Positions 1,509 through 56,773 of a stretch of 64,000 bases of DNA are shown here, piece by piece. This DNA is from a virus. The notes under the pieces were generated by a model. That model saw only the letters and a list, made by a program, of their open reading frames with translations, was not told the origin of the DNA and did no database searches. The stretch is from positions 1 through 64,000 of IMG/VR virus record IMGVR_UViG_3300021963_009993; one strand, given 5' to 3'. Each line of letters starts with the position of its first letter. The stretch's first letter is position 1. Both the position numbers and the translations under genes were made by a program.

Positions 1509-1622
1509 ATGGAAGAATATAAACCAACTTGGTGGGAACTTATAATAATGTGGAGTATTATTTTATTAATTCCAGCGTTAATTTTCTGGGCTGGTTATCT
1601 GGTTGGAAAGGATAATAAATGA
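1509..1622 (+). CDS. Small membrane protein (37 aa)
   Basis: GGAG RBS; MEEYKPTWWELIIMWSIILLIPALIFWAGYLVGKDNK; stop overlaps the next ATG. Confidence 0.55.
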   Translation: MEEYKPTWWELIIMWSIILLIPALIFWAGYLVGKDNK

Positions 1623-1966
1623 TTACATTCAAAACATTTATGGAAAACAATTCTTCAAAAGTTTTCTACCATGTAACTACTCAAGAAAATTACCATAAAA
1701 TTATGCAACATGGTCTTGTGCCAAATGTTGGAGCAAGATCGGCAAAATTAGAAGAGCAGCCTCAAATTTTTTTATTTACTGATAAAGAATCGATGGAAGA
1801 TGCAGTTGCAAATTGGCTTGGCGATGAGTTTGACGAGGATAAAGAGCTTGTTGTTTTACAAGTATCTTTACCTCAAGACTTCCCAATTCAAGTAAACGGT
1901 GGAGAGGCTACGACAACAACACCAATTCCTGCAAAATACATTCAATTAACAAACATACAAGTATGA
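1619..1966 (+). CDS. ADP-ribosyltransferase-fold (Tpt1/KptA-like) protein with N-terminal head-targeting-like tag
   Basis: MITFKTFME tag; FYHVT...IMQHGLVP, IFLFTD and VVLQVSLP match the ART-fold strand pattern. Confidence 0.55.
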   Translation: MITFKTFMENNSSKVFYHVTTQENYHKIMQHGLVPNVGARSAKLEEQPQIFLFTDKESMEDAVANWLGDEFDEDKELVVLQVSLPQDFPIQVNGGEATTTTPIPAKYIQLTNIQV

Positions 1967-2139
1967 TCCTTAAACACGCAGCAATCCCTGAAGGAGACAC
2001 ATTCCCAAATGGAACATTCTTTTTTAAGAGAAGAGTTTTTGGATTCTTGTGCCCTCAGAGTGCAGCGTTTAGGACACACCAAGCATTAGGATTTGGGAAT
2101 TGGTACACTAGTCATTGCTGGAAGTTTGAGGATTTGTAA
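1963..2139 (+). CDS. Hypothetical protein (58 aa)
   Basis: ATGA-coupled to the previous gene; open frame MILKHAAIPEG...WKFEDL fills the gap. Confidence 0.4.
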   Translation: MILKHAAIPEGDTFPNGTFFFKRRVFGFLCPQSAAFRTHQALGFGNWYTSHCWKFEDL

Positions 2140-2146
2140 TAATCAG

Positions 2147-2154
2147 CATAAATA
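2147..2154 (+). promoter_or_regulatory. T4-type late promoter (CATAAATA)
   Basis: 6 nt before the ATG of a tagged gene; no SD sequence. Confidence 0.6.
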
Positions 2155-2160
2155 AATATT

Positions 2161-4350
2161 ATGAATTTCAAAGAATGGTTTTTGATTATTGAATCAAAAG
2201 AAGAAAAAGAATTAGCCCTGCAATTAGCTGGAGATCAAGAAATCTTACAGCAATTAAACAACGAAATACCACAAAATCAAAAAGATACTGATAAATTACT
2301 GCTTTTGGCAGCTTATTACTACTCACAAAACAATAATCTCAATCAAATAAAAACGGATATTAAAGACTACATAGCTCTACTTAAAAACAACAGAATTCCT
2401 TTGATAATGGTGGATTTAAAAACCAAAAAGCCACCAAAAGACTATTTGACATGGACTCAAGAAATTCACGGACACCAAGCTGAGGAAGAATTCAAGCAAA
2501 AAAAGAAATACACACCCAGCGATATTGATTTTCAAAGTGAAAAACCAATAATGACTAGTCCAGATGGCAAAATAAAAGTCTATGAATCCAATTCACCACA
2601 ACAATGCATCATACTTGGAAAAGGTCAGAAATTTTGTGTTTCACAACCGGGAAACACAATGTGGAAAAGTTATAGAGATACTAAAGGTAGCACATTTTAC
2701 TTCGTCTATGACTATACAAGAAATGATGAGTTGAGTATCGTGGTTATTGATCAAAACTATCATGGAACACAATTAACAGACATAAGAAACAAAACAGGAA
2801 CAACAAAAGACCCGTTTACTGGCGAAAATACAAACAAACCAGATTCTTATTTAAAGTATCTTCAACAAAATGGAATTGATGTTAAAAAATTGATTAATAA
2901 GCCAAAAACAAAACAGGAAAAACTAGAAGATAAAAAACTAGGGGAAGAGAATGACAAATTGGATTGGTTCGTTTCATTGACACCACAGGAAAAATCAAAT
3001 TACATCGGAAGAGGACATCTTTTGTCCAATAAACAATTTGACTATTTGTGGAAGAACAGATTCATGAGTTTGTTGGAACAATATGTCAAGACTGGATTGA
3101 AATTACAACCATATCAAATAAGCAAAATTGCTACCAATATAGACCTGAAGAAGAATTATGTTCACAACAGAATGATTGCAAACAATCATGATTTTAACAT
3201 AAGTGAATATGAATGGGATTTGTTGAACGATCAACAAAAAAATGAAATTAGTGAATATCCCAAGGCGAATATTAGGAAAGCGTTTGAACTAAACAATAAT
3301 AAACTTATCAAATACTTGGTTGAAAAGGGTGCTGAGATTGGAGATTTGGCAAAAACTGCTGCCATAAACAAAAACATTGACCTTATGAAATATCTGATTG
3401 ACAAGGGTGCGGACATTGAAGGAACCACAGTAGACGATTTAGCCTACTGGGGAGATTTAAGTCTTATGAAATATTTGATTGATGAAAAGAAAGTCAAGTT
3501 TACAGATCGGATACTTACTCAAGCAGCAGGTTCAGGAAACTTAGAACTTGTTAAATATTTAATAAAGAAAGTTGCCAAAATTGAATCCGACACAGTAAGG
3601 TATGCAGCGGATAGTGGTAACTTTGAACTGGTTAAATACTTGGTGGACGAGGGTGGTGAAATCGATGAGCATGCAGTAAGCAGAGCAGCAAAGAGTGGAA
3701 ATCAAGAATTAGTTGAATACCTAGTAGATCGTCATGGCCAAATTGATGATAAAGCCTTGGATAACGCATCAAAAAGTGGAAATTTAGAACTAGTAAAATA
3801 TTTGGTACAAAAAGGTGCCAAGATTGACAAAGAAATAAAACCTACATCAGTATTTAGTATTGATCCTGTTAATTCAGCAATAAGGTCTGGCAATGCCGAG
3901 CTTGTAGAATACTTGGTTGATACAGAAAAAATGCATATGAATAGAACATATGCATTATATCATGCATTGCATTCTGGAAGTGTGCCTTTGGTCAAATATT
4001 TGGTAGACAAAAAACATCTTCCAATTGAAGACAACGCATTGGGAATAGCAGCAAGAGAAGGACACTTGGATTTAACAAAATACTTACTTGATGAAAAACA
4101 TGTGCCCTTAGATGAAAGAATAGTCTCTGAGGCAGCAAGTTCTGGAAACTTAGAACTTGTTAAATATTTAATTGATGTCAAAAAAGCAAAAATACCAGAT
4201 GACACATTACGATATGCCCTGTCCTCAACAAATATGGAACTAATAAAATATCTTGTTGATGAAAAAAATGTCCCAGTAGAAGAAGATGTGGTATTTGAAT
4301 TTTCTAGAAACCCAGAGATAAAACAATATCTCATGAATAAAATTAAATAG
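2161..4350 (+). CDS. Tagged ankyrin-repeat protein, copy 1
   Basis: MNFKEWFLIIE tag; about 13 repeats of type AA.SGNLELVKYLVxxGA; the N-terminal ~360 aa closely match 42656..44332. Confidence 0.9.
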   Translation: MNFKEWFLIIESKEEKELALQLAGDQEILQQLNNEIPQNQKDTDKLLLLAAYYYSQNNNLNQIKTDIKDYIALLKNNRIPLIMVDLKTKKPPKDYLTWTQEIHGHQAEEEFKQKKKYTPSDIDFQSEKPIMTSPDGKIKVYESNSPQQCIILGKGQKFCVSQPGNTMWKSYRDTKGSTFYFVYDYTRNDELSIVVIDQNYHGTQLTDIRNKTGTTKDPFTGENTNKPDSYLKYLQQNGIDVKKLINKPKTKQEKLEDKKLGEENDKLDWFVSLTPQEKSNYIGRGHLLSNKQFDYLWKNRFMSLLEQYVKTGLKLQPYQISKIATNIDLKKNYVHNRMIANNHDFNISEYEWDLLNDQQKNEISEYPKANIRKAFELNNNKLIKYLVEKGAEIGDLAKTAAINKNIDLMKYLIDKGADIEGTTVDDLAYWGDLSLMKYLIDEKKVKFTDRILTQAAGSGNLELVKYLIKKVAKIESDTVRYAADSGNFELVKYLVDEGGEIDEHAVSRAAKSGNQELVEYLVDRHGQIDDKALDNASKSGNLELVKYLVQKGAKIDKEIKPTSVFSIDPVNSAIRSGNAELVEYLVDTEKMHMNRTYALYHALHSGSVPLVKYLVDKKHLPIEDNALGIAAREGHLDLTKYLLDEKHVPLDERIVSEAASSGNLELVKYLIDVKKAKIPDDTLRYALSSTNMELIKYLVDEKNVPVEEDVVFEFSRNPEIKQYLMNKIK

Positions 4351-9785: not shown

Positions 9786-10385
9786 TTAAATCTTGGGAAG
9801 TCTTGGCTTTTCTGGTCTTTTAACAGGCTTCGCATAAGCGTCAGGATTCAACCAACCCTTCTTGCCAAACAACTTGGAATAAATTCCTTCTTCTTCTGCT
9901 GGTTTTGCAGCTGGAGATGCAACTTTCAATTTCATGGAAGTCATATCAATCCACTTCTCAAGGTCTTCTGCTATGAATCTGATTTGTCTTGGCAACTCCC
10001 TCATCTTCTCAGCATGACCCGGATTTTTCAGGGAAGTATAAGGACTGGGGATTCCACAATTGTATGCCTCGCTTTGACGAACATTTACCTCAGCACCAAT
10101 TACTTTTTCTTTTAGCAATGTTAATGTTTTATCAACCATTTTCATGCCATATTGAGATGTTACCATGTTCAACTCACTAACAAGTCCATCCAATATTGTT
10201 TTTGTTTTTTTAATCATGGAATTATGTTGCTGCTTGAATTCTGTACACTCACTCTTGTCTGAATGGTCAATCTTAAGTAATAAATCTTGTAACTTGCTGT
10301 TGCCCTCATTTGCTATGTCAATAGCACCTTGCAAAACATCACTTGAATAAACCGACTCATTTAACCATTCATGAAAGTTTTTCAT
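9786..10385 (-). CDS. Tagged hypothetical protein
   Basis: GGAG RBS then MKNFHEWLNE; start refined from 10397. Confidence 0.75.
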   Translation of the reverse strand: MKNFHEWLNESVYSSDVLQGAIDIANEGNSKLQDLLLKIDHSDKSECTEFKQQHNSMIKKTKTILDGLVSELNMVTSQYGMKMVDKTLTLLKEKVIGAEVNVRQSEAYNCGIPSPYTSLKNPGHAEKMRELPRQIRFIAEDLEKWIDMTSMKLKVASPAAKPAEEEGIYSKLFGKKGWLNPDAYAKPVKRPEKPRLPKI

Positions 10386-11999: not shown

Positions 12000-12635
12000 A
12001 TGGAGTCTACCATGTACGATATTGACTACGATTATGACACTAATCTCACCAAAGCCGTTGTTGTGTCTAATTTTGCTATGGATGAAATACTTGACTATGA
12101 CCTTATGGAAATCGTTAATGCAGATGTTGACTTTTTCAAAAGGATGATAGTTTGGGCAAATAAAAAAATGGGTTTAAAGCAGCCAAAAATAATAAATTTT
12201 AATTTTGAAGAAATGTATCCAGTTCAATTAGAAGATGAGAATGTAAGAAAAAACCTTGGCGAAAAAGGTTGGGGTTTTGCATGCTTCCAACAAAAAGATT
12301 TGTTTCGTATTACTATAGACAAGCAAACAACCTCTTTCGAGTCATGTATAACCAAGGATAAAATTTGCTTGGTTGAGATTCTATTGGAATTAGTTTCTTG
12401 GTCACTTGTTATGAGTGCATTAAATGGATTAAAAAAACAAGAAATCATTCAACTAATCAAAACTAAAATATGCTCTGCTTACAAGGCAGATGGCAAAAAC
12501 TTGTTTAAGGCTTTCTCCAATCATCCAATAGAAATGCCTACAGACAAGAGAATACCCAATTTATACTTGGAACTTTACAACAAGCTGCCACCCGATCAAC
12601 AAAAGTCTCTCATGGAAGCACTTGGAATCAAATAA
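12000..12635 (+). CDS. Hypothetical protein with shared C-terminal YNKLPP tail (1 of 4)
   Basis: Ends IPNLYLELYNKLPPDQQKSLMEALGIK. Confidence 0.8.
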   Translation: MESTMYDIDYDYDTNLTKAVVVSNFAMDEILDYDLMEIVNADVDFFKRMIVWANKKMGLKQPKIINFNFEEMYPVQLEDENVRKNLGEKGWGFACFQQKDLFRITIDKQTTSFESCITKDKICLVEILLELVSWSLVMSALNGLKKQEIIQLIKTKICSAYKADGKNLFKAFSNHPIEMPTDKRIPNLYLELYNKLPPDQQKSLMEALGIK

Positions 12636-12648
12636 AAAGGAGTTTGTC

Positions 12649-13224
12649 ATGTCTGATTTTTTCACAAATGATGATATTGAAATTGAAAACAACCTTTCAC
12701 CAGAATTTGGTTTTAATAACAAATTGCTTAAAGCTTATGTTGAATGGACTCAAAAGCAGTTGGATTTTGTGAACGAAAACAAAAAAAAATTCATATTTTA
12801 TTCAATCAAATTGGAAGATTGCGAGAATGAATTAATCCGTCAGATCATTTCGGAAAAGGGTTATTACTACAAAGGAGGTTGGAGAAACACAACCGAAATA
12901 ACCTTCTTGGAAAATCACAAATCATTCGTTTCTTTAGTAAGTTTAACTCCAAAAATTGTCGATTTTAAAACCATACTTTTAGAATTAATTGGATGGGGTT
13001 TTTTCCCAGAACAGTTTTTATCATACGAAAGAAACATAATAGTTTGCAAGAAAATGATACAAAAAAAAGTGATTGATGCTTATGAATTGTTTAATGAAAA
13101 GGAATTCATATTAAATGTTGCTGATGTTGTCCTAACAAAAATACCAGATGCATATTTGGAAATGTATAACAAGTTGCCACCCGATCAACAAAAGTCTCTC
13201 ATGGAAGCACTTGGAGTAAAATAA
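12649..13224 (+). CDS. Hypothetical protein with shared C-terminal YNKLPP tail (2 of 4)
   Basis: AAGGAG RBS before ATG 12649; ends IPDAYLEMYNKLPPDQQKSLMEALGVK. Confidence 0.8.
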   Translation: MSDFFTNDDIEIENNLSPEFGFNNKLLKAYVEWTQKQLDFVNENKKKFIFYSIKLEDCENELIRQIISEKGYYYKGGWRNTTEITFLENHKSFVSLVSLTPKIVDFKTILLELIGWGFFPEQFLSYERNIIVCKKMIQKKVIDAYELFNEKEFILNVADVVLTKIPDAYLEMYNKLPPDQQKSLMEALGVK

Positions 13225-14710: not shown

Positions 14711-14721
14711 CGAGGTCAATC

Positions 14722-32535: not shown

Positions 32536-32604
32536 ATATATCACTTGATATCAAAAGATATACTTAAAAAAGTTGTGTGGTTTATTGGGGTGGAATACAC
32601 TAGG
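32536..32604 (+). promoter_or_regulatory. Early promoter family member
   Basis: GATATCAAAAGATAT; AAAAG-TTGTGT-N17-TACACT-AG. Confidence 0.85.
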
Positions 32605-32647
32605 TGTAGGTAACTAGGACTACTAGGACTACATGGAGGGTTTCAAA

Positions 32648-45693: not shown

Positions 45694-46387
45694 ATTTGTA
45701 TATTAATTTCCCAATGGATTCCAAGTGTTTGATGGTTGAAGGTTGTTTTTGGTATACAAGAAATACGGTTGGGTATCTATCTTTATGATCATTTTTGTCC
45801 ATTTGTTGCAAATATGATAATTCTCTAACTTGTCTTTTTATCCATTTTTTATATTCTTCAGTATTTTCTGGTGGAGGTGGTGTGATATAAGGATCTAGTC
45901 TATCATTTTTTATATTATTTGAAATGATTTGATCGTTAATTTCTTGTGTAGTTTTATTAGTTTTGATCCAAGTTTCTATTGGTATGGCGATAACATCATG
46001 TCTATTTTTGAATATTGAGTTCCAAAGTCTATAGGCATTTGAGCTTGTGTCATCTTCATTTATGGAGGCGCATGGCATAACACCTTGTTTATTTTGTGTT
46101 GCTAGTTCTAATGCTATTTCGTATAGTGTGGTTCCTATTTTTTTGTTTCTTAGTTGTGGTTCTAGCCAAGCGTTATTGATGCAGGTTGGATTAATATCGG
46201 TTCTGAATTCAACATTTCCTAGTGGTTTTGGTTTTCCGTTTTCATATAGATCTGGTTGTTTTGTAGAATCGAAGAGGTTTATTGTTGTAATATCTTTTCC
46301 ATCCTCGTTTTTTTCTTTAGTTACGACGAACTGAAAGTTATCGAGTGTATCGTATTGTTGTTTAGACAGCCATTCTTTGAATTTCAT
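45692..46387 (-). CDS. Tagged GNAT-fold acetyltransferase-like protein
   Basis: MKFKEWL; INNAWLEPQLRNKKIGTTLYE resembles GNAT motif A; SSNAYRLW. Confidence 0.6.
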   Translation of the reverse strand: MKFKEWLSKQQYDTLDNFQFVVTKEKNEDGKDITTINLFDSTKQPDLYENGKPKPLGNVEFRTDINPTCINNAWLEPQLRNKKIGTTLYEIALELATQNKQGVMPCASINEDDTSSNAYRLWNSIFKNRHDVIAIPIETWIKTNKTTQEINDQIISNNIKNDRLDPYITPPPPENTEEYKKWIKRQVRELSYLQQMDKNDHKDRYPTVFLVYQKQPSTIKHLESIGKLIYK

Positions 46388-46431: not shown

Positions 46432-47682
46432 TTATTCCTTTACTTCAATATCTACATCTTGAGGTACTATGGTATTGGCGAAATCTACATAAACTGATTT
46501 TTCGCTTGGGCTCTTTAGTTCTCTTCCGTCTGGGAATGTTACGGCATGGAATGTAGTTGGGAACTGGTAGAATAGATTTCCCAAGACACTTTCTTTGAGT
46601 ACGGATTTTTGGCGAACGCTTAAGGAGCTATTATCGGTAAATTTGATTAACAAATCGGCCCAGATGGAAGGGCCATCGACGGAAACATATTTTGGTATCA
46701 TATCGAAATCTGCGCCGTGTAGAGTTTTCTTTGCTTGGACAATTGGACCCAATTTGGAAACAATTCTGTGCATGAAAGCAATTTTGATTCCATTGAATAT
46801 TCTTTTAATTTCCTTTTTGGTTTCTTGTTCGGATTTTCCAACGATGTATTTGTACCATGTTTGTTTTTTGGCATCATCGGGATTTATTTTGCCATCTGAA
46901 AGAAGTTTATAATTATTGAGCCATAGATTGTATTTTTCTTCCGTGAATTTTTCTTCCAAGGAGGAGAGCATTTCTTCCAATTTTTGTGTAAGTTTTACAA
47001 GTGTATTTGCATCACCTATTCTATTTGCTTCGGCACTTGCTTGAACTTTTATTTCTTCCTTTTCTCTTGCTTTATCTTCTTTCTTTTGTGTTTTAATTTC
47101 TGTGTTAGCTTTATCTATTTTGGGTAATAATATTTTGAAGTCATGTATAGCTTTGTTGATGATATAGGCTGGTTTTCTTTCTTTTCCCATGCCCATAAAT
47201 GATTTCACATTTGTTTTAACGCCATTGATTTCGACTTCTCTTACGAGGTTTCCTGTTTGAATAAGTTTTTTAATATCTTCAAGTTTTTCTGGGTAGATAT
47301 AATCTGTTGCTTTTGTTGTGTTCAATAGATTGACTGCTTTTTCTATTTCATCGAAAAGTTTTTGATTTTCCGTATCCCCTTCTGGTGGTTTTGGCATTAT
47401 ATTTTTCCAAGTGCCGTATGGTAAAAATTTTATATCGTATGGAGAAGTGCTATTGAGGTTTATAAAATCCTGCATTTTCAAATCGCCAAGTTTGTTTCTT
47501 GCTACTCTTATTGCGCTGGCTGCTTTTTGAGCCCATCTTTTAGTTGGATTCATTTTATCGAAGCTTGATTCGATATAATCCAAATCTGCCAACAAGTCAG
47601 TCATATCATTTTTGAGTTGATTGACATCAGATTTTTCGGAATTTTCTTCGTTTACAAGAAGCCAATTTTTAAAATTTAGCAT
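46432..47682 (-). CDS. Tagged protein; C-terminal domain shared with 54492..55952
   Basis: MLNFKNWLLVNEE; RI..KLGPIV...F.D.SS.SV...FYQFPTTFH.V..P.G..LK.PS..SVY..FA. Confidence 0.8.
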   Translation of the reverse strand: MLNFKNWLLVNEENSEKSDVNQLKNDMTDLLADLDYIESSFDKMNPTKRWAQKAASAIRVARNKLGDLKMQDFINLNSTSPYDIKFLPYGTWKNIMPKPPEGDTENQKLFDEIEKAVNLLNTTKATDYIYPEKLEDIKKLIQTGNLVREVEINGVKTNVKSFMGMGKERKPAYIINKAIHDFKILLPKIDKANTEIKTQKKEDKAREKEEIKVQASAEANRIGDANTLVKLTQKLEEMLSSLEEKFTEEKYNLWLNNYKLLSDGKINPDDAKKQTWYKYIVGKSEQETKKEIKRIFNGIKIAFMHRIVSKLGPIVQAKKTLHGADFDMIPKYVSVDGPSIWADLLIKFTDNSSLSVRQKSVLKESVLGNLFYQFPTTFHAVTFPDGRELKSPSEKSVYVDFANTIVPQDVDIEVKE

Positions 47683-47750: not shown

Positions 47751-49154
47751 TTATTTATATTGGATCATATCATTCAATACTGATGTCAATTCTTGGGTTT
47801 GTTCTGGTGTCAATTGGATGAGTGGTTTATCGTTGATTGTGATGGTATTTCCTTTGAGTTTAACGGTTTCAGATCCGTTGGTTAATTGTTTATTGACATT
47901 GAAGTATTTTGCGGTAACTTCTCTTGCTTTTTTTCTCCAATCAATTCTTGGTGGTGCTGTGCCGAAGATAGGAGTTTCTGTTGATTCAGATTTAATTCCT
48001 GTCAATTGTTGCATTTGTTGAGGATTAAGAGTTAATGTATAGTCGCCTCTTGATCCGTGGAATTTTAATTGTCTTCCTACTAAATCTAAGTTTATTTTGC
48101 CTAGGACATAAGATTTGATTTGTTTTGGTTGCTGGCTAGCGTCACCGACAAGCAAACAGTAATCACCGCCTTTTGTCTGTACGCAGAATTTGTCGCCTGA
48201 ATTGAGCGGGGTTTTGTTGTTTGGTGTTAGTTGTTTACCATTGAGTGTAAATGTGTTTCTTTTTGTTTTGACAACTGCATACCATTGTTTTTCATCGAGG
48301 TATGTGAAGGTGATGGGTGGATCGTTTTTATCGATGATTGCTGATCTTAGTTCTCCGGGCCATTTTAATGTTATTGAATCATGAACAAATCTTGTTGGTG
48401 ATAGTTTGAAAGTTCTTGGTTCGTTTGCAAAATTGATTGGGTTCATAACTAGCGGAGGTGCTTTAATCACCTTATCAGATATATCTCTGCCTGAAATCTT
48501 GGCTTGGTAAAGGCTTTTGACGCTGGTTCCTTTCATGGTATTTTTCCATTCAAGGTTATTGATTGTAGATGGATCAAGATTAATGTTATCACTTTCCGCA
48601 TAACCAAGGAATTTTACACCATCTTCGACTGGGGGGTATTTAAGGATACAAAGCCCGAATCTTGGTCCTGATAGACCCATGTCCATGTAGATGGCACCTT
48701 TTAAATTTTTCTCACACCAGTTTTTATAATTTCCTAAAAAACTGTCGTTCATATTTTTATCGTAATCATTTAGTTTTTCTTGCCAATCCGGTCCGGCTTC
48801 TTTTTTCCAACTCTCTAGAACCTTGAGTTTTTTGAGTTGGCTGCTGACTAGGTAATCTGGGCCGTGCATTTTCATCGCTTCATTTTTTGAGAGGACAAGG
48901 AAGTTTTCTAGTCCTGATATTTTCCATTTTGTAATATATCTGCCATAGTCTTCTGCATGTGAAGTGAATTGCGACTCTAGGTTTACCATAGTGTATAGAC
49001 CGCATCCGAGGGCGCATCCACCGGATTTACCTGCTTCAAATATTTGCGATATGAGAGATGATACGGTTCCTAGGTCTGTAGTTCTGTGGTAAACGACAGC
49101 GGTGTTGTTTTGCAGATATAGTTCTTCAGTAAGTAGCCATTGTGAAAAGTTCAT
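47751..49154 (-). CDS. Tagged PARP/ART-like protein with a possible FHA-like C-terminal region
   Basis: MNFSQWLLTEE; VVYHRT...GCGLYT...YGRYI; later FTLNGKQLTPNNKTPLNSGDKF. Confidence 0.55.
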   Translation of the reverse strand: MNFSQWLLTEELYLQNNTAVVYHRTTDLGTVSSLISQIFEAGKSGGCALGCGLYTMVNLESQFTSHAEDYGRYITKWKISGLENFLVLSKNEAMKMHGPDYLVSSQLKKLKVLESWKKEAGPDWQEKLNDYDKNMNDSFLGNYKNWCEKNLKGAIYMDMGLSGPRFGLCILKYPPVEDGVKFLGYAESDNINLDPSTINNLEWKNTMKGTSVKSLYQAKISGRDISDKVIKAPPLVMNPINFANEPRTFKLSPTRFVHDSITLKWPGELRSAIIDKNDPPITFTYLDEKQWYAVVKTKRNTFTLNGKQLTPNNKTPLNSGDKFCVQTKGGDYCLLVGDASQQPKQIKSYVLGKINLDLVGRQLKFHGSRGDYTLTLNPQQMQQLTGIKSESTETPIFGTAPPRIDWRKKAREVTAKYFNVNKQLTNGSETVKLKGNTITINDKPLIQLTPEQTQELTSVLNDMIQYK

Positions 49155-49297: not shown

Positions 49298-49693
49298 TTA
49301 AATCTTTCTGGCGATTATACCTTTGGATGTGATTATTTTTTCTGTAGTTTTTTGTGGGTTTGTTATTGGGTATCCCCATTTACCTTTATTTGATATATTG
49401 TATGGGGAATCTTTATCAACGAGGTGTTTGTCTTGATCTTTTTTGAATTCATTTTCATTGTTGTAGAATTTTGGTTTATTGAAAGTGGCGTAGCCAACTA
49501 GTGTTGCTGGGCCTTTTCCGGTTCGTATGATACCAACTTTTTTGTTTACATATGGGTTGAGTGATGGTGTATCTCTGGTTTCGATGGTTTTTTCACCTGC
49601 CATTATTTGTTTGGTGAATGGTTGGTGTTTATCGTTTATATTGATGCCGATTTTGGGTTGGTCGTTTTCTTTTAGCCATAGTTTAAAGTTCAT
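49298..49693 (-). CDS. Tagged ASCH-domain protein
   Basis: MNFKLWLKE; IMAGEKTIETR...LVGYATF...WGYPITNP. Confidence 0.8.
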   Translation of the reverse strand: MNFKLWLKENDQPKIGININDKHQPFTKQIMAGEKTIETRDTPSLNPYVNKKVGIIRTGKGPATLVGYATFNKPKFYNNENEFKKDQDKHLVDKDSPYNISNKGKWGYPITNPQKTTEKIITSKGIIARKI

Positions 49694-49713: not shown

Positions 49714-49881
49714 ATGAAAACATTTATGGAATGGTTGAATGAGTACAATGCGCCTAGGGCTGGGATGAAGTCTCGTTGGTCTGTTAAGTACAAGAAGTCT
49801 ATTAATTGCAGTAATCCCAAGGGATTCAGTCAGAAGAATTATTGCAAGCGCAAGAAGCGTGGTGGTGGTTATCGTTCTTGA
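49714..49881 (+). CDS. Tagged small basic protein (WSxKYKKSIxCxNPKGFSQ family)
   Basis: Missed by the ORF track (55 aa): MKTFMEWLNE...RWSVKYKKSINCSNPKGFSQKNYCKRKKRGG. Confidence 0.8.
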   Translation: MKTFMEWLNEYNAPRAGMKSRWSVKYKKSINCSNPKGFSQKNYCKRKKRGGGYRS

Positions 49882-51170
49882 CTTGGTTGTGCTTGATCTT
49901 TTTTAAGTATTTTTATTTGTTTTGGGTCGAACACGGCGATATTACTTGCGCCTCTTTCTTTTGTCATAATTGAGTCGAATCCTTGTTTTTTGATGAAGTC
50001 TATGATTGGTTTTGATTCGACGAATCTCCAGCTTTTGTTTTCAATTCTCCAGAGGATGTGTTCTATTGCATCTTCGATTGTTTGGACTGGTTGGTTTGTT
50101 TTTGGGTTGTTTAATGTTGGCGAGATGTTGAAATTAGCCCCTGTAACTGGGTCTTTGTATTTGTTTTCGATTGCTTTTTTGATTGCTGGGACGAGTATGA
50201 GTCGATGTTTTTCATCTTGTGGTTTGAATGGATTTTTGGCATTGAGGCAAGCTGTGAATACATTTCCTTTTGATGTTTCGCCTGCGAACCCTTCGCCTGT
50301 AGCGAACATGTGTGCGAATTTCGGATCATCTGTGAAGTAGATGGTGCCGTAGTAGTTTGATTTGCCGGGATCGAAGTTATCGAAATCTTTTTGTGTGCCG
50401 TGGTAGACTGGTCCGAATAGTCCATCGCATTGGTTTTCTTCCTGTAGGGTGAGGAATGTTTTGAAAGAGAAATCTAGTGATGGGTTGTATGAATCGCCTG
50501 TGAATCTTTGTTGGAAGGCTTTTAGGTCACCTCTGGTATTTGCGAATGGTGATTGGTAGTATCTGCCTCTGACTTCCTTTTCATCTGTATCGACATTTGA
50601 TTTGACTGAGAATGGTTCGTAGAGGATATCTTTTACTTTTTCTGTCCATTTTCTTTTTGTTGTGTAGTCGAAAATGTTGACATCGATGTCATCGAATATT
50701 TGTTCATTGTCCATGTATTTTGGTTTTTCTTTTATTTTATTGATGCAATCAGCTAGTTGTTTCTTTTTGTCTTGTCCCCAATCTGCCAATTCGACATTGT
50801 TGTTTCTGGTTAGTATGAATCCGAATTTTTTTACACCGTCGCCAACGGTGTCATATTTCTTTGAATCGAGGGTGGAATATTTGGAATAGAAGTCGTATAG
50901 TGGCCATTTTTTGATATTGGGTTGGAATTTTTCAATGAATCTGACTGTTTCTGGGAATATCCAACCTACGCTTTTTAGATCTTTGATTTTGCTTAGTTCG
51001 CTTGGATTTGCTTCGTTGATGTGTTCATCGATAGTTGGCATGAATCTTTCTTTGAAGTCTTTGATAATGAGTATGTTTGTAGCGATGCCGTGGTCACCGC
51101 TACCGACAACATTGACATCGATAAGTTCTTTGGTGTTTGGGTTGTATAGATGTTCGCCTAGTTCGTTCAT
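49869..51170 (-). CDS. Two-part protein with C-terminal ART-PolyVal-like ADP-ribosyltransferase domain
   Basis: VYHGT..DF..FD...GTIYFTDD...A..FA...NVF...LN.KNP...GFDSI...IAVFDPKQIK; an internal tag-like FSFKTFLTLQEE precedes it. Confidence 0.75.
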   Translation of the reverse strand: MNELGEHLYNPNTKELIDVNVVGSGDHGIATNILIIKDFKERFMPTIDEHINEANPSELSKIKDLKSVGWIFPETVRFIEKFQPNIKKWPLYDFYSKYSTLDSKKYDTVGDGVKKFGFILTRNNNVELADWGQDKKKQLADCINKIKEKPKYMDNEQIFDDIDVNIFDYTTKRKWTEKVKDILYEPFSVKSNVDTDEKEVRGRYYQSPFANTRGDLKAFQQRFTGDSYNPSLDFSFKTFLTLQEENQCDGLFGPVYHGTQKDFDNFDPGKSNYYGTIYFTDDPKFAHMFATGEGFAGETSKGNVFTACLNAKNPFKPQDEKHRLILVPAIKKAIENKYKDPVTGANFNISPTLNNPKTNQPVQTIEDAIEHILWRIENKSWRFVESKPIIDFIKKQGFDSIMTKERGASNIAVFDPKQIKILKKDQAQPSQER

Positions 51171-51234: not shown

Positions 51235-51966
51235 ATGAATTTTAAATCTTGGTTTTTGAATGAAGAGAGTGGTGGCAAGGAGTATTGGGGTCCATTCAGT
51301 TATGTCACAAGGGAAGGTGATTATCTTAGGGTGACGGCAGATTTGTTGGACAAACCGCTTTACATACCTGTTAATGGCGGTGTCACATATGTTGAAAAGT
51401 ATCCTTTAGATAAGCGTTTGAATCCACCTTGGAACAAGTATTTTCGTTATTCTGTTTCCGGTGATGGCAGGTATGTTGTCAATTATGTCGAGAACAGGGC
51501 TGTTGATTGTGTTTGTTATTCGCCAAAGTATGATGCTATTTATTTGATAAACCGCAAAGCATCTCCTGTTGGTTTGGCTATTCCCGGCGGTTTTTTTGAT
51601 ACGCATGACGGAATTGATTCAAACAATCCAACTGATCCAGAATCTATTGGAAGAAAAGCAGCTGCCAGAGAGTTGCAAGAAGAGACTGGGGCGAAAATAA
51701 ATCCCGGTGAGCTTTCTTATATTGGTCGTTTTAGGACGGGTGATTCTGACAGCAGGGAAAAGAACTTCTATGTGTGGGCTTACTTCTACAGGGTGCCAGA
51801 TGAAAGTATTCGTTCTTTCAAGTTTGGTGATGATGCTGGTCAGGCACCGGGTAGTCCTTCTTTGCAGCGTGATGGTTTGAAGGGTTGGTACAAGTTGGAT
51901 GAGATTCCAAGTCTGGCATTTCCCCATCACATGGACATCATAAAACAAGCTACCCATCTTGTGTAA
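51235..51966 (+). CDS. Tagged Nudix hydrolase (ADP-ribose pyrophosphatase-like)
   Basis: MNFKSWFLNEE; AVDCV...LAIPGGF...AAARELQEETG...FGDDA...LAFPHH. Confidence 0.85.
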   Translation: MNFKSWFLNEESGGKEYWGPFSYVTREGDYLRVTADLLDKPLYIPVNGGVTYVEKYPLDKRLNPPWNKYFRYSVSGDGRYVVNYVENRAVDCVCYSPKYDAIYLINRKASPVGLAIPGGFFDTHDGIDSNNPTDPESIGRKAAARELQEETGAKINPGELSYIGRFRTGDSDSREKNFYVWAYFYRVPDESIRSFKFGDDAGQAPGSPSLQRDGLKGWYKLDEIPSLAFPHHMDIIKQATHLV

Positions 51967-52702: not shown

Positions 52703-53476
52703 ATGGGTATCAAGACTGAGATTGCGTGGACTGAAAGCACCATCAACTTTTGGTGGGGTTGCTGCAAAGTTTCCGAGGGTTGCAAGCATTGCTATGCCGA
52801 AAAGGACAATGATCGTTATCAATTGGCAGAGTGGGGACCAGACACTTTGCGTACATGGATTAAGACCTGTTATGCGAATGCCAGCAGAGCCAACAAGATT
52901 GGTAGGGAGAGTGGCATCAAGAGAAGGGTCTTTACCTTGTCTATGGGTGATTTCTTTGAAACTCATGCTGTTTTGGATGAGTATCGTGCTAGGGCTTGGA
53001 AGCACATCAAATCTTTGACTCATATCAATTGGCTAGTGTTGACCAAGCGTCCAGAGAACATTGCTTCGATGTTGCCAAAGGATTTCCATAATGGTGACTA
53101 CAAGCATGTTCATTTGGGCACTACTTGTGAGCATGAGAAGTATGTTGATCGTTTGGATTATCTTCGTGATATTCCTGAGTGGGGAGGAATCCGTTGGGTA
53201 AGTTACGAGCCTGCTCTGAGTCCTATTGATCATGTTGTTGATTTGACCAAGATTGATTGGTTGATTTATGGTGGGGAGAGTAGTCGTAGTTATCTTGGGT
53301 TCCGCAAGGACAATGATGAGTGGGCTAGGAGGATCAAGGTTTTGTGTGAGAAGGAGGGTACTGTTTTCTTTTACAAACAAAATAGTGGTTTGAAAAGGAA
53401 GCTACTCAAGAAGTTGGATGGTGTTCAGCATTACAATTTCCCAGACTTTGACAAGAATCATCTGGAAGTTGTTTAG
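52703..53476 (+). CDS. DUF5131 / phage Gp37-Gp68 family protein
   Basis: TEIAWT..T.N.WWGC.KVSEGCKHCYAE, LTKRPEN, WVSYEP, IDWLI.GGES, FFYKQ. Confidence 0.9.
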   Translation: MGIKTEIAWTESTINFWWGCCKVSEGCKHCYAEKDNDRYQLAEWGPDTLRTWIKTCYANASRANKIGRESGIKRRVFTLSMGDFFETHAVLDEYRARAWKHIKSLTHINWLVLTKRPENIASMLPKDFHNGDYKHVHLGTTCEHEKYVDRLDYLRDIPEWGGIRWVSYEPALSPIDHVVDLTKIDWLIYGGESSRSYLGFRKDNDEWARRIKVLCEKEGTVFFYKQNSGLKRKLLKKLDGVQHYNFPDFDKNHLEVV

Positions 53477-53937
53477 TATCCTTCTTCAACTTCTATGATT
53501 TCGGCTGCGTTGGTCAGGTATTCCCATACGCTTTCATTAGGGTGTGGGATGCCTGACCAATAGTTATTTGCTGCTTCGATTACTTCCATGCTATTTTCAT
53601 CATGGCCCGATGACAGAAGACTTTCTATTTCTGAATTCCAATTGACATCATGTCTTTCTACTTTCCCCAACGGTTTTAGTTTGAATATCCAATCTGTAAC
53701 GGCACCTGCCAATTCTAGATCATCTGTGTTATCTGTCATGAATACTGCATCTTTGTGAGATATCATGTTCTTTGGTCTATATTTTTCCAGTATTTTGTAC
53801 CAAGGATTAAATCCCCAATCTTTTTCGTATTGTTCAGTCCTACCTTTCAATATTGTTCCTACTGGTATTTCTTTTGAACTACCATGAAAGAAAATACGGG
53901 ATTCAATGCTTTCCAAGAACTGTTTGAATGTTTTCAT
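53473..53937 (-). CDS. Tagged Arr-like ADP-ribosyltransferase-fold protein
   Basis: MKTFKQFLE; FFHGS...VG.IL...AVFMT...IFKLKP.G.VE...WEYL. Confidence 0.55.
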   Translation of the reverse strand: MKTFKQFLESIESRIFFHGSSKEIPVGTILKGRTEQYEKDWGFNPWYKILEKYRPKNMISHKDAVFMTDNTDDLELAGAVTDWIFKLKPLGKVERHDVNWNSEIESLLSSGHDENSMEVIEAANNYWSGIPHPNESVWEYLTNAAEIIEVEEGY

Positions 53938-53940
53938 GTT

Positions 53941-54489
53941 TTAGATTGTTCGTATTCCCTTGTTAGTCAATTCAAATTTCATATTTATTTTGAATGGTTG
54001 TACTTGGTTTTCACCTAATTTGTGTACTTGCATGCCTTTGGTATCGAGCATTTTTTGCAGGTTTCCACCCTTGCTGAATTTGCCTACTGCTGCCATGACA
54101 TCCCTTGTGACCATTTGTTTTGCCTGTTGTTCATTTTCGGCATTTACTATTGCATTTACTTCTACAACCAAAGCGGTTTGACCTTGTTCTTTTGATTCTA
54201 TTATTTCGATGTTGAATTCTGAGTAGTATGCTTTTGATTGTGCGTGGTGTTTGATTGTTTCCTTGAGTGAATTAATAGATCTGATGTTAATTTCATCGGC
54301 TTGGATATTTTGATGAATGGCTGGTTTTTCGTTATAGCTTTGTGATTGCACCATGTATTGTTGTAGGTTGTTGTTTTTTGCTTGTGCAGCACTAGCCATG
54401 CCTAAACCAGCTGCCAGACCCAAGGCACCTGTTTTCAATAGGTTTTCATCATATTGTTCTTGATTTTCTAGCCAGTTTTTGAATTGCAT
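53941..54489 (-). CDS. Tagged protein with an internal signal-peptide-like segment
   Basis: MQFKNWLE...DENLLKTGALGLAAGLGMASAAQA. Confidence 0.7.
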   Translation of the reverse strand: MQFKNWLENQEQYDENLLKTGALGLAAGLGMASAAQAKNNNLQQYMVQSQSYNEKPAIHQNIQADEINIRSINSLKETIKHHAQSKAYYSEFNIEIIESKEQGQTALVVEVNAIVNAENEQQAKQMVTRDVMAAVGKFSKGGNLQKMLDTKGMQVHKLGENQVQPFKINMKFELTNKGIRTI

Positions 54490-54491
54490 GA

Positions 54492-55952
54492 TTATCCTAA
54501 GTCATTTACTTCTGTTTCTTCATCTTTTTCTATTTCAGGTGGTTTATCGAGTCCAGCGAATGCTAGGTAAACGGACATTGCCGATGGGTGTTTGAGTGAT
54601 TCACCATTTGGCAATATTACATTGTGGAATGTGGTTGGGAATCTATAGAATCGTTTTCCACCACCTGAGCTAAACATGGCACCTCTTCTTGCACCACTTA
54701 TGGCTGCGACCATTTTGTGAACTACGCTGAAGGATGAGCCGTCAGCGAATTGGATTTTCAATCTAGCTTCTAGTGATCCATAATTTGCGCTTGAATAAAT
54801 CAATTTGATATTGGCTTGTTTGCCTGTCGTTGCAGCTTTCTTGGCAACTATTGGTGCCAATTTTCCTGTGATGCGACTGAAGAATATTTGTGATACATTT
54901 CTCCATGATTGTTCTGCCACCTTTTCAAGCTTATCCTCTGGTGGTCTTGTAAATGCATCATCTTTGGTAACAACTAATTGTGCGCCTAGTGGATATCTTG
55001 CTCTCAAATCCCTCTTCATCTTGATGGCAGGTTCTGAATAATCTCTTGGTTTTGGTGAACTGGCGATGAACTTGTCTATTTGTTCATTTGCCACTATCAA
55101 GAAATTTTTCTTGTATTCATCTTTTTGATTTGACAATAGAACATCGATTTCCTTTCCAAGTTCTTCTACAGCCTTAAAAGATATAACGGGAGTTTCTGCT
55201 CTTACTTTTTCTGCTGCGACTTCCTTGGCTTTTACTTTTTCTTTTTGAGCTTCTTCTTTCTTTTCTCTCTTGATATCTGCATCTTTTTTAGCTTTGCTTT
55301 GGATGTTTTCCTTGATGAAATCGGATAGTGTCTTCCATAAATTACCAGCATCTTCCATCCAATCTGCTATGCTTACTACCTTGCCAGATTTGAGTTGAAC
55401 ATTCATGAGTGCTTCTGTATTTGGATAGTTTTCTGCTTTTTCGCCTTCTATTGGCTTCATGAATGGGAAGTCATTTGCGTATTTGGCATACTTCTTCAAA
55501 TTTTTAGCTATTTTTTCAGAATTGGGTGATACTCCTTGAGCCCATAAAAATTGAATAAATGCATCTTTGTATTTGTTCCAATTTTCAAATTTGTCTGTGC
55601 CTAAAGCTTTGTAGAAAGGATTTGGTTTTCCATCTACTTCTGGGTTATTTTGGTTATCAAGTCCACGATATCCTCCACCGGACTGAAGGGGCAATGGAAC
55701 AAGATTGTGTACTGTTACTGCTCTGTATATATTTGTTGCGAAATCGGGATGGACTTTGAATTTTTCTTTTGCAGCATTTAATTCTGAATTAGGGACAACA
55801 TCCTTGTTTTTCAATTCCATCAATTCTTTCATTCCCATATCGATTTCTGCTGAACTTTTTTCATCAAGGTATGCTTTCACTTTGTTTACGGCATTGGCCA
55901 GATCTGATTCTGTTGTTGCCTCTGTGATAATTAGCCAGTCTGAAAAGTTCAT
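54492..55952 (-). CDS. Tagged protein; C-terminal domain shared with 46432..47682
   Basis: MNFSDWLIITE; FYRFPTTFHNV.LPNG..LK.PS..SVY..FA. Confidence 0.8.
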   Translation of the reverse strand: MNFSDWLIITEATTESDLANAVNKVKAYLDEKSSAEIDMGMKELMELKNKDVVPNSELNAAKEKFKVHPDFATNIYRAVTVHNLVPLPLQSGGGYRGLDNQNNPEVDGKPNPFYKALGTDKFENWNKYKDAFIQFLWAQGVSPNSEKIAKNLKKYAKYANDFPFMKPIEGEKAENYPNTEALMNVQLKSGKVVSIADWMEDAGNLWKTLSDFIKENIQSKAKKDADIKREKKEEAQKEKVKAKEVAAEKVRAETPVISFKAVEELGKEIDVLLSNQKDEYKKNFLIVANEQIDKFIASSPKPRDYSEPAIKMKRDLRARYPLGAQLVVTKDDAFTRPPEDKLEKVAEQSWRNVSQIFFSRITGKLAPIVAKKAATTGKQANIKLIYSSANYGSLEARLKIQFADGSSFSVVHKMVAAISGARRGAMFSSGGGKRFYRFPTTFHNVILPNGESLKHPSAMSVYLAFAGLDKPPEIEKDEETEVNDLG

Positions 55953-55990
55953 TTTACACCTTTTTGAATTTCAAAATATATATATTTACT

Positions 55991-56773
55991 ATGAAAAGTT
56001 TTATGAATTGGCTTAGAGAGAGTTATGCTCCTAGAAACCTTAATTGGTTGCTTGTTAGAAATTACTTGAAGAATGCTGAAAAGAATTTTGATGTTTTGGA
56101 CAGTTGGGAGCAGTTCAAGAACTGGGATGAATCCGAGGAGATAGCCAACAATCTTTCTTTGGATTTGGAAGATGAAGACAAACTTTATGACAATGCTGCA
56201 AAAATAAACAAGTACATGATGGATAATCCAGAATTACTGGATAATTTTTTATATCAATATTTGGATAGTGAAGAATCGCCTGCTTATTTGAATATGAATT
56301 ACATTAGAGATTTACCGCCAAACACATGGTTGGTTCATTTTTCAGACAAGGCTGGCAATATTGCCGACGATGGTTTCAAGCATGGTGTCTCAGATGTTAG
56401 GAAAATGCATTACACTAGGGGAGAAACCTACAGCAGTAGGACATCTGATTCTGGTTACAATTTTGCTTTTTTGGCTAATTCAAAAGAGGCAGCTTCAGCA
56501 GCCAAGGATTCCAAGTATGGTTCTGATGCGGTTATGTTCATGAGTGCTGGTGTTTTGACCTATCATGCTGGTGATAACGAGAATCAAGTTGTGTTTGATG
56601 GAACTAATGTAAAGCCAAAAGACATAGTGTATTTGGAAAGAACTGCGTATGACTGGGTTGTCAAGTCAAAGGATTCAAATAAAAGAGATCCATATATAAA
56701 CAACGATTTCGGGGAAGTTGTTAAATGGGTCATGAACAACTGGCAGCAGTATAGAAAAATAATAATGGGATAA
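55991..56773 (+). CDS. Tagged protein, possible ART-fold C-terminal half
   Basis: MKSFMNWLRE; WLVHFSD...I..DGF..G...YNFAF...YG..AVMF...E.QVVF. Confidence 0.55.
   Translation: MKSFMNWLRESYAPRNLNWLLVRNYLKNAEKNFDVLDSWEQFKNWDESEEIANNLSLDLEDEDKLYDNAAKINKYMMDNPELLDNFLYQYLDSEESPAYLNMNYIRDLPPNTWLVHFSDKAGNIADDGFKHGVSDVRKMHYTRGETYSSRTSDSGYNFAFLANSKEAASAAKDSKYGSDAVMFMSAGVLTYHAGDNENQVVFDGTNVKPKDIVYLERTAYDWVVKSKDSNKRDPYINNDFGEVVKWVMNNWQQYRKIIMG

Follow-up and report, generated by a model that had tools for sequence, protein, structure and literature searches.

ART-PolyVal, a family of ADP-ribosyltransferases (ARTs), is named after the polyvalent proteins. These proteins, found in phages and conjugative elements, combine two to fifteen effector domains in each polypeptide (Iyer et al. 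2017, PMC5512222). Packaging in phage heads has also been predicted for ARTs, Nudix and Macro proteins, above all for those of myoviruses (Iyer et al. 2022, PMC9503650). In T4, the capsid targeting sequence (CTS) MKTYQEFIAE has been functionally mapped, with residues 4 and 7 involved in targeting and residues 8 and 10 in processing (PMC8442874, PMC9026906).

Here we analyze the leading 64 kb (the window) of a 181-kb fragment from an uncultured phage. The record is 38% complete, and genomes of the phage's clade reach ~0.5 Mb; judged by sequence, the source is a T4-head-type myovirus, with a head module of T4 type. Within the window, 42.6-59.2 kb forms a hypervariable island of tagged cargo genes, with outliers at 1.6-4.4, 9.8 and 17.9 kb (Table 1, in which genes are named by their first coordinate). 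The original prediction described a polyvalent toolkit distributed over separate genes, comprising about seven ARTs, an ADP-ribose Nudix hydrolase, a GNAT, a kinase and an HD/peptidase-like protein. The separate-gene arrangement is upheld: structurally different ART-fold proteins and a Nudix hydrolase are encoded as genes of their own, and almost all of these genes carry the same N-terminal tag. Every motif string quoted in that prediction was recovered from the translations at its given position. The figure of seven ARTs is nevertheless an overcount, comprising three that were shown, one that is probable, two at the level of motifs only and one without support.

Table 1. Cargo genes and ART candidates of the window, in order of position
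Coordinates	Strand	Length (aa)	Feature	Basis
1619-1966	+	115	tagged orphan, FYHVTT...HGLVP...IFLFTD	motifs
2161-4350	+	729	ankyrin-repeat protein, tagged	Ank_2 E 4.7e-40
9786-10385	-	199	tagged protein	tag
17885-18700	+	271	tagged protein with HDLLTH	phrog_3170 E 2.4e-9 (annotation: unknown function)
26817-27410	-	197	untagged protein, outside the cargo cluster	phrog_2579 E 6.9e-27
42656-44332	-	558	ankyrin-repeat protein, tagged	Ank_2 E 1.9e-20
44396-45589	-	397	tagged protein, probable divergent ART-PolyVal relative	ESM Atlas, hhalign
45692-46387	-	231	tagged GNAT-like protein	sub-threshold matches
46432-47682	-	416	tagged protein	tag; paralogue 54492-55952
47751-49154	-	467	tagged protein, N-terminal ART fold and FHA-like C-terminal part	AlphaFold model, structure search
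49298-49693	-	131	tagged protein	tag; weak ASCH-like match, PF04266 E 0.02, sub-threshold
49869-51170	-	433	ART-PolyVal protein	Pfam PF18760 E 8.9e-17
51235-51966	+	243	tagged Nudix hydrolase	PF00293 E 6.5e-8, above cut-off
53473-53937	-	154	tagged ART-fold protein, BC2332/Arr-like	AlphaFold model, structure search
53941-54489	-	182	tagged protein	tag
54492-55952	-	486	tagged protein	tag; paralogue 46432-47682
55991-56773	+	260	tagged protein, possible ART	conserved motifs
56775-57122	+	115	tagged protein	tag
57619-58101	+	160	tagged protein, N-terminus MRFIDFME	tag
58088-58729	+	213	tagged protein, RDLHDEN...IIDC at extreme C-terminus	kinase-like motifs only

Two of the predicted ARTs, 53473 and the N-terminal domain of 47751 (47751N, aa ~13-200), belong to families without any Pfam model. 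Their AlphaFold models are confident and their structural neighbours are almost exclusively ARTs, which bears out both calls at the level of the modelled fold. The invariant columns of 53473 are H18-G19-S20, V65-F66 and W138-E139, and its putative triad as read from the alignment is H18, F66 and E139, with Phe replacing the middle Tyr. Structurally this protein resembles the BC2332-like family (SCOP d.166.1.6; PDB 2aua) and Arr, with 19-22% identity and no match to either at the sequence level. The rifampin ADP-ribosyltransferase Arr acts on an antibiotic, and nothing here points to such a role for 53473. In 47751N, H23-R24-T25 and G50-x-G52-L53-Y54 are invariant; no Glu is invariant, and the alignment suggests D178, present in 89% of sequences, as the third residue. 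Its best structural neighbours include MbcT and the RES-domain toxin NatT, with ParT, diphtheria toxin and PARPs scoring almost equally; identity to the MbcT/ParT/RES-type toxins and to the diphtheria-toxin-group/PARP ARTs is 9-12%. MbcT and NatT are NAD+-degrading or small-target toxins. Unlike the MbcT/ParT/RES-type toxins, 47751 possesses a tag and an FHA-like tail and lacks an invariant catalytic Glu, and no antitoxin-like partner is evident. Sequence profiles revealed no links among the ART candidates.

The ART-fold proteins need not be macromolecule ADP-ribosyltransferases. They could instead cleave NAD+ as glycohydrolases or phosphorylases, act on small immune signals derived from NAD, or serve as non-catalytic domains for binding or as decoys. 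Such functions would suit the substituted Phe of 53473, the lack of an invariant Glu in 47751N and the general lack of the His in the family of 44396N (the N-terminal domain of 44396), and would also be in keeping with the proximity of 47751N to MbcT and NatT and with the small-molecule target of Arr. We nevertheless regard this as unlikely: His is invariant, as are the G-x-G-L-Y or HGS motifs, a pattern that NAD+ binding would predict; 47751N has almost equally good neighbours in ParT, diphtheria toxin and PARPs; and fusion to FHA-like and ankyrin modules suggests protein targets. The atypical triads of 53473, 47751N and most of the 44396N family also weigh against the explanation of the island that we favour below, as do the missing profile links among the ART candidates and the incompleteness of the record.

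The feature common to the island is its tag. Some 25 otherwise unrelated genes open with the pattern M-x-(x)-F-K-x-W-L-x-x-E, 9-12 residues in length; such a start occurs in 26 ORFs of the record, compared with 0-1 in 20 codon-shuffled genomes. The first Phe is at position 3 or 4, W/F follows three residues on and L/F/I/M comes next, while the closing Glu lies between positions 8 and 12, with [LIVF]-x before it in about 20 of the 25 tags. Because synonymous codons vary and the Phe may be at either 3 or 4, the constraint falls on the tag peptide and not on the DNA. The 47751N family has the tag in every one of its 49 members, the 44396N family in 44 of 150, the 55991 family in five of seven and the 53473 family in only 7 of 102. 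Most members of the 53473 family have a different N-terminus, a point against the explanation favoured below. The tag therefore behaves as a portable module.

The four positions conserved in the tag are the same four that were functionally mapped in the T4 CTS, and the two peptides share an aromatic at 3/4, an aromatic at 6/7, then an aliphatic residue, and a Glu at ~10. The CTS differs in having F where the tag has W, and the tag is often one residue longer. Like T4, this phage encodes a gp21-type prohead protease (Peptidase_S77, PF03420 E 6.3e-30; G000 129508-129924). Its gene lies upstream of that for the major head protein (phrog_138) and adjoins a putative scaffold gene, recognised by its location alone. 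Within their first 80 residues, the portal candidate, the protease, the putative scaffold and the major capsid protein have sites of the form [LI]-N-E, and the tag itself ends in [L/I]-x-E, the cleavage rule of gp21-type proteases such as the one encoded here. These data strengthen the analogy to T4 Alt drawn in the original prediction.

Boxes resembling T4 late promoters ([TC]ATAAATA/TATATAWA) are found <=40 nt upstream of 17 of the 25 tagged genes, versus 17 of 193 others (Fisher p 1.5e-10), which favours late expression of the tagged set. The start region of the tagged genes also invites a reading unrelated to the capsid. In many of them the box is just 6-8 nt from the ATG, with no Shine-Dalgarno, which might make the opening codons part of an expression cassette. 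The tag might then have come along with a promoter and near-leaderless start cassette that these genes share, or else be the recognition site of a modifying enzyme or a membrane or secretion signal, and the tagged proteins would act in the infected cell after de novo synthesis. We give these possibilities little credence, since the peptide is conserved despite variation in synonymous codons and in the distance from M to F, does not vary at the protein level among the 49 metagenomic homologues of 47751N, and agrees with both the mapped CTS residues and the rule of the encoded protease. No radical-SAM gene, a candidate for such a modifying enzyme, was found in this 38%-complete record. A capsid-loading tag is thus the reading that we carry forward.

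The third ART, 49869, was likewise correctly called from its motifs, YHGT and IYFTD. Its PF18760 match covers aa 254-424 and scores 62.6 bits against a gathering threshold of 31.2; PF18760 has no match at E<=10 in the other six ART candidates. The ART-PolyVal domain is C-terminal (aa ~246-433) and follows a 233-aa N-terminal extension without the tag. A tag remnant, FSFKTFLTLQEE, is found internally at aa 234, where a search for a start codon found none, and head loading of this protein is uncertain because the remnant is its only trace of the tag. The missing N-terminal tag in this genome is a further point against the favoured explanation. A relative (L002:10001-10594) comprises a stand-alone, tagged 197-aa version of the domain with 73% identity.

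The remaining ART candidates are of decreasing strength. The N-terminal domain of 44396 (aa ~40-225) carries KLGINP, TPGGIYFYP and IHPNEPEQ; in the ESM Atlas its neighbours, at 0.93, are clusters of ART-PolyVal, and hhalign matches it to a small ART-PolyVal alignment with E 0.004 over 155 columns. PF18760 was not among the HMMER matches listed at E<=1 for 60 members of the family. The family is large (1691 representative clusters at E<=0.001), with fusion partners comprising LRV, HEAT, ankyrin, NUDIX, SLT, PBECR5 and MazG, and its consensus, like most of its members, lacks the conserved His. Together these data suggest that 44396N is probably a divergent ART-PolyVal relative without the conserved histidine, and the ART call is retained as probable only. 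A possible ART is encoded by 55991, in which W-L-V-H, G-Y-N-F-A-F and H-x-G-D-x-E/Q-x-Q-V-I-F are conserved, with invariant columns across six homologues; weak Atlas leads point to DarT/PARP and Arr clusters (0.89), structural TM is 0.30-0.34 to enterotoxin/Scabin-like and Tox-ART-HYD1 clusters, and no PDB sequence matched. Orphan 1619, for which a search found no relatives, is possibly a minimal ART-like domain, with sub-threshold ART-clan matches to Pfam PARP (E 0.11, aa 4-36) and to the NCBIfam RNA 2'-phosphotransferase KptA (E 0.04, aa 8-35); the 99-aa product of L002:9518-9817 resembles it and matches Tox-ART-HYD1 at E 0.084.

Gene 26817, also predicted to be an ART, gained no support: it matches phrog_2579, annotated as 'ParB C-terminal domain', its phage homologues are either hypothetical or carry that same annotation, it is untagged, it has no Pfam match and is absent from clade relatives, and no ART evidence was found.

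That most of the 'ARTs' are chance motif matches, in a region of unrelated orphans with one ART-PolyVal gene, is highly improbable even though just one of the seven calls (49869) reaches Pfam significance and 1619, 55991 and 26817 have no significant support, as the confident models and neighbours of 53473 and 47751N already partly refute it and the language-model and profile-profile leads for 44396N are concordant.

Of the accompanying enzymes, the Nudix domain of 51235 is secure, with a Nudix-box sequence (RELQEETG) and a match to phrog_1198 (MutT/NUDIX), with ADP-ribose as a candidate substrate only; the best PDB sequence is 2yyh, an '8-oxo-dGTPase domain' (E 1.9e-5), and the sole NCBIfam match is a weak one to YtkD (E 0.001), far below its cut-off. 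The GNAT call for 45692 stays below threshold, with two GNAT-type Pfam families matching weakly (E 0.14-0.19) over the region read as the acetyl-CoA motif; its homologue L002:8710-9486 (E 3e-23) features RGKGVGG and matches three GNAT families at E 0.014-0.05. Neither of the other two calls gained support. The supposed kinase, 58088, has no match in Pfam (E<=10), PHROGs, NCBIfam or PDB sequences, which lowers the case for a kinase, and it may at most have a remote kinase-like fold; the HD/peptidase-like 17885 matches only its PHROG, with nothing in Pfam, NCBIfam or PDB. The tagged cargo also features paralogous pairs, namely the two ankyrin-repeat proteins (E 3e-187) and 46432 with 54492 (phmmer E 6.5e-16).

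Two members of the tagged cargo, 53473 and 47751N, are thus ART-fold enzymes from separate families, the latter fused to an FHA-like module, and they are accompanied by a Nudix hydrolase, a sub-threshold GNAT-like protein, ankyrin-repeat proteins, a probable ART-PolyVal relative and two possible ARTs. A T4-style loading tag on some 25 unrelated proteins suggests that an assortment of enzymes is probably injected together with the phage DNA. We therefore favour, with some reservation, an explanation in which the island encodes separately tagged, head-packaged and injected effectors, which would make it a counterpart of T4 Alt and its internal proteins on a larger scale and in unbundled form. 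For this cargo we infer packaging, cleavage, injection, catalytic activity and targets as follows. The tagged proteins would be made late and dock through the tag on the prohead scaffolding core, where the Peptidase_S77 protease would clip the tag after [L/I/V/F]-x-E. The mature proteins would stay within the head and be ejected into the host alongside the DNA, and the ARTs would most likely use NAD+ on host proteins, nucleic acids or defence components at the onset of infection, as T4 Alt does. More tentatively, a single head may deliver four to six structurally different ARTs along with Nudix, GNAT and ankyrin adaptors, each a free-standing gene with the same portable 10-residue capsid-loading tag, such that the tag system forms a plug-in platform for injected effectors and at least two ART families (47751N-type and 53473-type) are undescribed, with new targets. 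If true, the tag platform would invite comparison with the sets of effectors that bacterial secretion systems deliver.

Among described systems, T4 is similar in that Alt and IPI, IPII and IPIII carry an N-terminal peptide of ~10 residues on otherwise unrelated proteins, in that one of its cargo classes is an ART, and in that its internal-protein genes, like this cargo, are hypervariable between relatives. It differs in having a handful of tagged genes, compared with ~25 in 181 kb here, and the several ART folds here are of non-Alt families, with no match to the Alt/VIP2-type PF03496 in this phage. Polyvalent proteins share the ART-PolyVal domain of 49869, and 44396N-type domains are found with PBECR5, NUDIX, SLT and MazG in long proteins. 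Nudix, FHA, ankyrin or PBECR5 modules occur as fusion partners in relatives of two other ART-like domains, and from motifs read in translation, one polypeptide of viral contig L095 appears to combine Nudix-box-like, ParB-like and ART-PolyVal segments with YHVTT. However, the defining polyvalent architecture is absent here because the domains sit in ORFs of their own, which have separate tags and promoter-like boxes, and not in one chain; only the two-part 49869 resembles a fusion. The systems of Iyer et al. (2022, PMC9503650) are alike in comprising ARTs and Nudix proteins predicted to be virion-delivered in a large-genome myovirus. There, packaging was inferred from MuF/portal fusions and gene neighbourhood, whereas we read it from a CTS-like tag carried by genes that stand alone.

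Beyond the window, which covers bases 1-64,000 of a source record of 181,260 bp (CheckV completeness 38%), the record encodes a baseplate wedge protein, a large terminase and a major head protein (phrog_138). A prohead protease gene of the T4 gp21 type lies upstream of the major head protein gene, and the single ORF between the two is taken, by position only, as a putative scaffold. Among viral contigs, 389 relatives of the major head protein were found at about 80-90% identity, including one 532,729-bp record with a rated completeness of 100%. By these head and baseplate genes, the protease and the large relative, the source is an uncultured myovirus whose head morphogenesis is of the T4 type and whose clade has genomes of about 0.5 Mb.

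Positions of the features discussed, in the window or, where marked G000, in the whole source record
Feature	Position	Strand	Match or description
Candidate 1619	1619-1966	+	
DUF5122 beta-propeller protein, 757 aa	5489-7762	-	
Candidate 26817	26817-27410	-	phrog_2579 'ParB C-terminal domain'
Protein with N-terminal domain 44396N	44396-45589	-	
Protein with N-terminal domain 47751N, 467 aa	47751-49154	-	predicted ART fold, aa ~13-200; FHA-like C-terminal part
ART-PolyVal protein	49869-51170	-	Pfam ART-PolyVal, E 8.9e-17, aa 254-424
DUF5131 protein, untagged, within cargo cluster	52703-53476	+	E 5e-51
Predicted ART-fold protein 53473	53473-53937	-	
Candidate 55991	55991-56773	+	
Endonuclease VII, untagged, mid tagged cargo cluster	57147-57500	+	PF02945, E 6.2e-15
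T4 gp21-type prohead protease	G000 129508-129924		Pfam Peptidase_S77, E 6.3e-30
Major capsid protein	G000 131032-132474		begins MNANARFLNE

The ART-PolyVal protein is the only ADP-ribosyltransferase (ART) candidate with a significant family match, scoring 62.6 bits (cut-off 31.2), and tblastn returned no match to it in phage and plasmid collections. Its domain follows in frame after 233 untagged residues, with a remnant of the shared N-terminal tag, FSFKTFLTLQEE, at the fusion junction. The remnant has no start codon, and initiation at this internal tag is therefore ruled out. A 92-kb relative encodes a free-standing ART-PolyVal protein of 197 aa, starting MNFKQWLNEQ, that is 73% identical to the domain.

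Protein 53473 has 102 metagenomic homologues, none of them (0/102) with a Pfam domain, in which H18-G19-S20, V65-F66 and W138-E139 are invariant. Its AlphaFold model is confident (mean pLDDT 95.3), and Foldseek matched it to 2aua (E 3.6e-5) and Arr (E 7.7e-3); within BFVD, uncharacterized phage proteins were recovered at E 1e-7, with ART-PolyVal-like and PARP-domain phage proteins lower down. SCOP lists 'BC2332-like' as a family within the ADP-ribosylation superfamily (PMC3000352). On the strength of the model and the structure searches, we accept 53473 as an ART fold.

Domain 44396N belongs to an unannotated and very large family (1691 representative clusters at E<=0.001) with conserved KLGINP, TPxGIYxYP and GIIHxNEPxQ motifs. 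Elsewhere, the domain is fused to LRV, HEAT and ankyrin repeats, NUDIX, SLT, MazG, and the polyvalent-protein nuclease PBECR5. In the ESM Atlas it adjoins ART-PolyVal clusters at 0.93, a similarity possibly inflated by the shared tag, and family-bearing neighbors agree in 10/10 cases. When the four candidate family alignments were compared by hhalign with each other and with a nine-sequence ART-PolyVal alignment, the one suggestive value was that of 44396N against ART-PolyVal (E 0.004 over 155 columns), where GIYFYP pairs with IYFTD and both C-terminal motifs are paired too. The 44396N consensus lacks a His in the first motif, and HMMER detected PF18760 in 0/60 members scanned, at E<=0.001 or E<=1. 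Profile searches of PDB sequences with the other three alignments likewise found no ART. The two fold-confirmed families, 53473 and 47751N, do not match each other in sequence-profile comparison either, and missing sequence matches therefore carry little weight. On balance, 44396N is probably a divergent ART-PolyVal relative. The ART folds could alternatively be NADases, small-molecule modifiers or decoys, to which their atypical triads and the neighbors MbcT, RES and Arr lend some support; we regard this as unlikely.

No feature of the region is more robust than the one described by the original prediction as separately tagged genes. Across the record, 26 ORFs start M-x-(x)-F-K-x-W/F-L/F/I/M-x(0-3)-E/Q, compared with 0 or 1 in 20 codon-shuffled genomes; 20 of the 26 are in the window, 15 of them between 42.6 and 59.2 kb. 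In ten relatives, a DNA pattern encoding F-K-x-W-L was counted 70 times, whereas the reversed control was counted 21 times. Both Phe codons are used (TTC 10 times, TTT 15 times), the aliphatic position is encoded by seven different codons, and the first Phe falls at position 3 or 4; the constraint is therefore on the peptide rather than the DNA. The closing Glu is found at positions 8-12, most commonly 10, with [L/I/V/F]-x just before it in about 20/25. The tag is portable: by family, it is carried by 49/49 members of 47751N, 44/150 of 44396N, 5/7 of 55991, and only 7/102 of 53473. Most 53473 homologues have another short leader (MRISQL..., MKISEL...) immediately before the [FY]HGS motif, and this leader may serve a different phage group as its address tag. 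The T4 capsid targeting sequence, MKTYQEFIAE (PMC8442874), directs targeting through residues 4 and 7 and gp21 processing through residues 8 and 10 (PMC9026906), and the same four positions are conserved in the phage tag. Both this agreement with mapped residues and the peptide-level conservation speak against the tag being something other than a capsid signal, which we consider distinctly improbable. A role as a radical-SAM recognition site is likewise unsupported, as the partner gene is absent from the 38%-complete record.

Sites of the form [L/I]-N-E are frequent in the N-terminal parts of the portal candidate, the protease, the putative scaffold and the major capsid protein. The FLNE at the start of the capsid protein resembles the W-F/L-L-N-E ending of the cargo tag, a likeness that suggests recognition of one site on both by the protease.

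Boxes of the form [TC]ATAAATA/TATATAWA lie within 40 nt of the start in 17/25 tagged genes versus 17/193 others (p 1.5e-10), often only 6-8 nt from the ATG and without a ribosome-binding site. The T4 late-promoter consensus is TATAAATA. Within the upstream 25 nt of the tagged genes 2161, 17885, 42656, 45692, and 47751, a CATAAATA/TATAAATA box is found 6-8 nt before the ATG with no Shine-Dalgarno sequence, a spacing from which these mRNAs may be near-leaderless products of T4-late-type promoters. AAGGTG ribosome-binding sites are, however, present at structural genes that share this box.

All motif strings quoted in the original prediction are present in the translations at the coordinates it gave, and their meaning varies from gene to gene. 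Its count of about seven ARTs is only partly upheld. Candidate 55991 has six homologues with conserved WLVH, GYNFAF and H-x-GD-x-E/Q-x-Q, and its Atlas leads to ART families are weak (DarT/PARP and Arr at 0.89; TM 0.30-0.34 to enterotoxin/Scabin-like and Tox-ART-HYD1 clusters). For 1619, the YHVTT region gives sub-threshold matches to the ART-clan families PARP (E 0.11) and KptA (E 0.04); a similar 99-aa protein in the 92-kb relative matches Tox-ART-HYD1 at E 0.084, and a polyvalent protein of IMGVR_UViG_3300030618_000009 has a similar 'LKLYHVTT...HGF' motif after its ART-PolyVal domain. For 26817, which is untagged and outside the cargo cluster, a search for ART evidence found none, and its homologues in phages carry the annotation hypothetical or 'ParB C-terminal domain'. 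Scans of viral and metagenome contigs returned no relatives of 26817 or of 1619, leaving the latter an orphan. Moreover, 53473, 1619 and 26817 are found in 0/25 large clade contigs, which are therefore of little use for alignments. That most ART calls are chance motifs is highly improbable, being refuted for three genes with 44396N a probable fourth ART, and could still apply to two or three.

The Nudix call was confirmed (PF00293, E 6.5e-8), with nothing to tie the protein to ADP-ribose, and the GNAT call draws concordant, sub-threshold matches in the window protein and a homologue. The proposed kinase-like protein 58088 has no family match, and the 'HD' protein 17885 matches only phrog_3170, a family of unassigned function. 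Neither an Alt/VIP2-type ART nor a Macro domain is present in the record. Elsewhere in the window, neighboring small proteins at 12000-15117 (+) share a C-terminal ~25-30 aa (all-against-all phmmer, E 1e-6 to 1e-4). A higher-GC stretch (41-46%; 31021-34708 and 36995-38779, +) encodes a MoxR/AAA_5 ATPase with a VWA protein after it, as well as a UvrD-type helicase whose N-terminus bears a topoisomerase-type zinc ribbon. The very AT-rich segment 60324-63073 (28% GC) encodes sugar-modification genes, namely a polysaccharide pyruvyl transferase, a DegT/DnrJ aminotransferase and a methyltransferase.

A T4-style head-cargo system is the best-supported reading of the tagged genes. Cargo proteins would be made late and docked by their tag on the scaffolding core, trimmed after the tag Glu by the Peptidase_S77 protease, retained in the head, and ejected together with the DNA. 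The predicted cargo comprises two tagged ART folds, the Nudix, the GNAT-like protein and ankyrin-repeat proteins; the third ART of the set, the ART-PolyVal protein, has the internal tag remnant only. By analogy with T4 Alt, which acts on RNA polymerase (PMC9026906), the ARTs may target host proteins, nucleic acids or defence components at the very start of infection. This reading agrees with published work that predicts frequent head packaging of ARTs, Nudix and Macro proteins in myoviruses, and injection of polyvalent proteins (PMC9503650). The analysis itself establishes the folds, family matches, tag counts, protease gene and promoter-like boxes; the packaging, trimming and injection of the cargo, its catalysis and its targets are inferred.

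New here are the number of tagged genes (about 25 in 181 kb), the presence of several ART folds of different families within one cargo set, and two ART-fold families plus one very large ART-PolyVal-like family, all without a Pfam model. The two ART-fold families, each of which has some 50-100 or more members in metagenomes, are candidates for new host-takeover or anti-defence chemistry, and 44396N adds a third widespread domain, recurrently joined to Nudix, PBECR5 and repeat modules. Should the tag function as it does in T4, the scheme known from Alt and three internal proteins would grow to cover dozens of interchangeable effectors injected by environmental megaphages, and the genome sequence would be enough to list a phage's injected proteins by a simple sequence rule.

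Polyvalent proteins share with this system the ART-PolyVal domain and several partner domains, but their defining single-chain architecture is absent here; the window system is therefore not a polyvalent protein, and the proposed 'unbundled polyvalent toolkit' is a fair analogy rather than family membership. One polyvalent-type ORF of >839 aa (IMGVR_UViG_3300030618_000009, 2-2518) combines in one chain a BLAST-confirmed ART-PolyVal domain with motifs readable as a Nudix box, ParB-like DGNHR, 'LYHVTT...HGF' and R-S-E-like 'VYRGM'. The same domains thus appear to circulate both bundled in polyvalent proteins and unbundled as tagged genes, which supports virion delivery of polyvalent proteins. 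Overall, the closest comparison is with T4 Alt and IPI-III and their capsid targeting sequence, a system whose in silico testable features were all found here.
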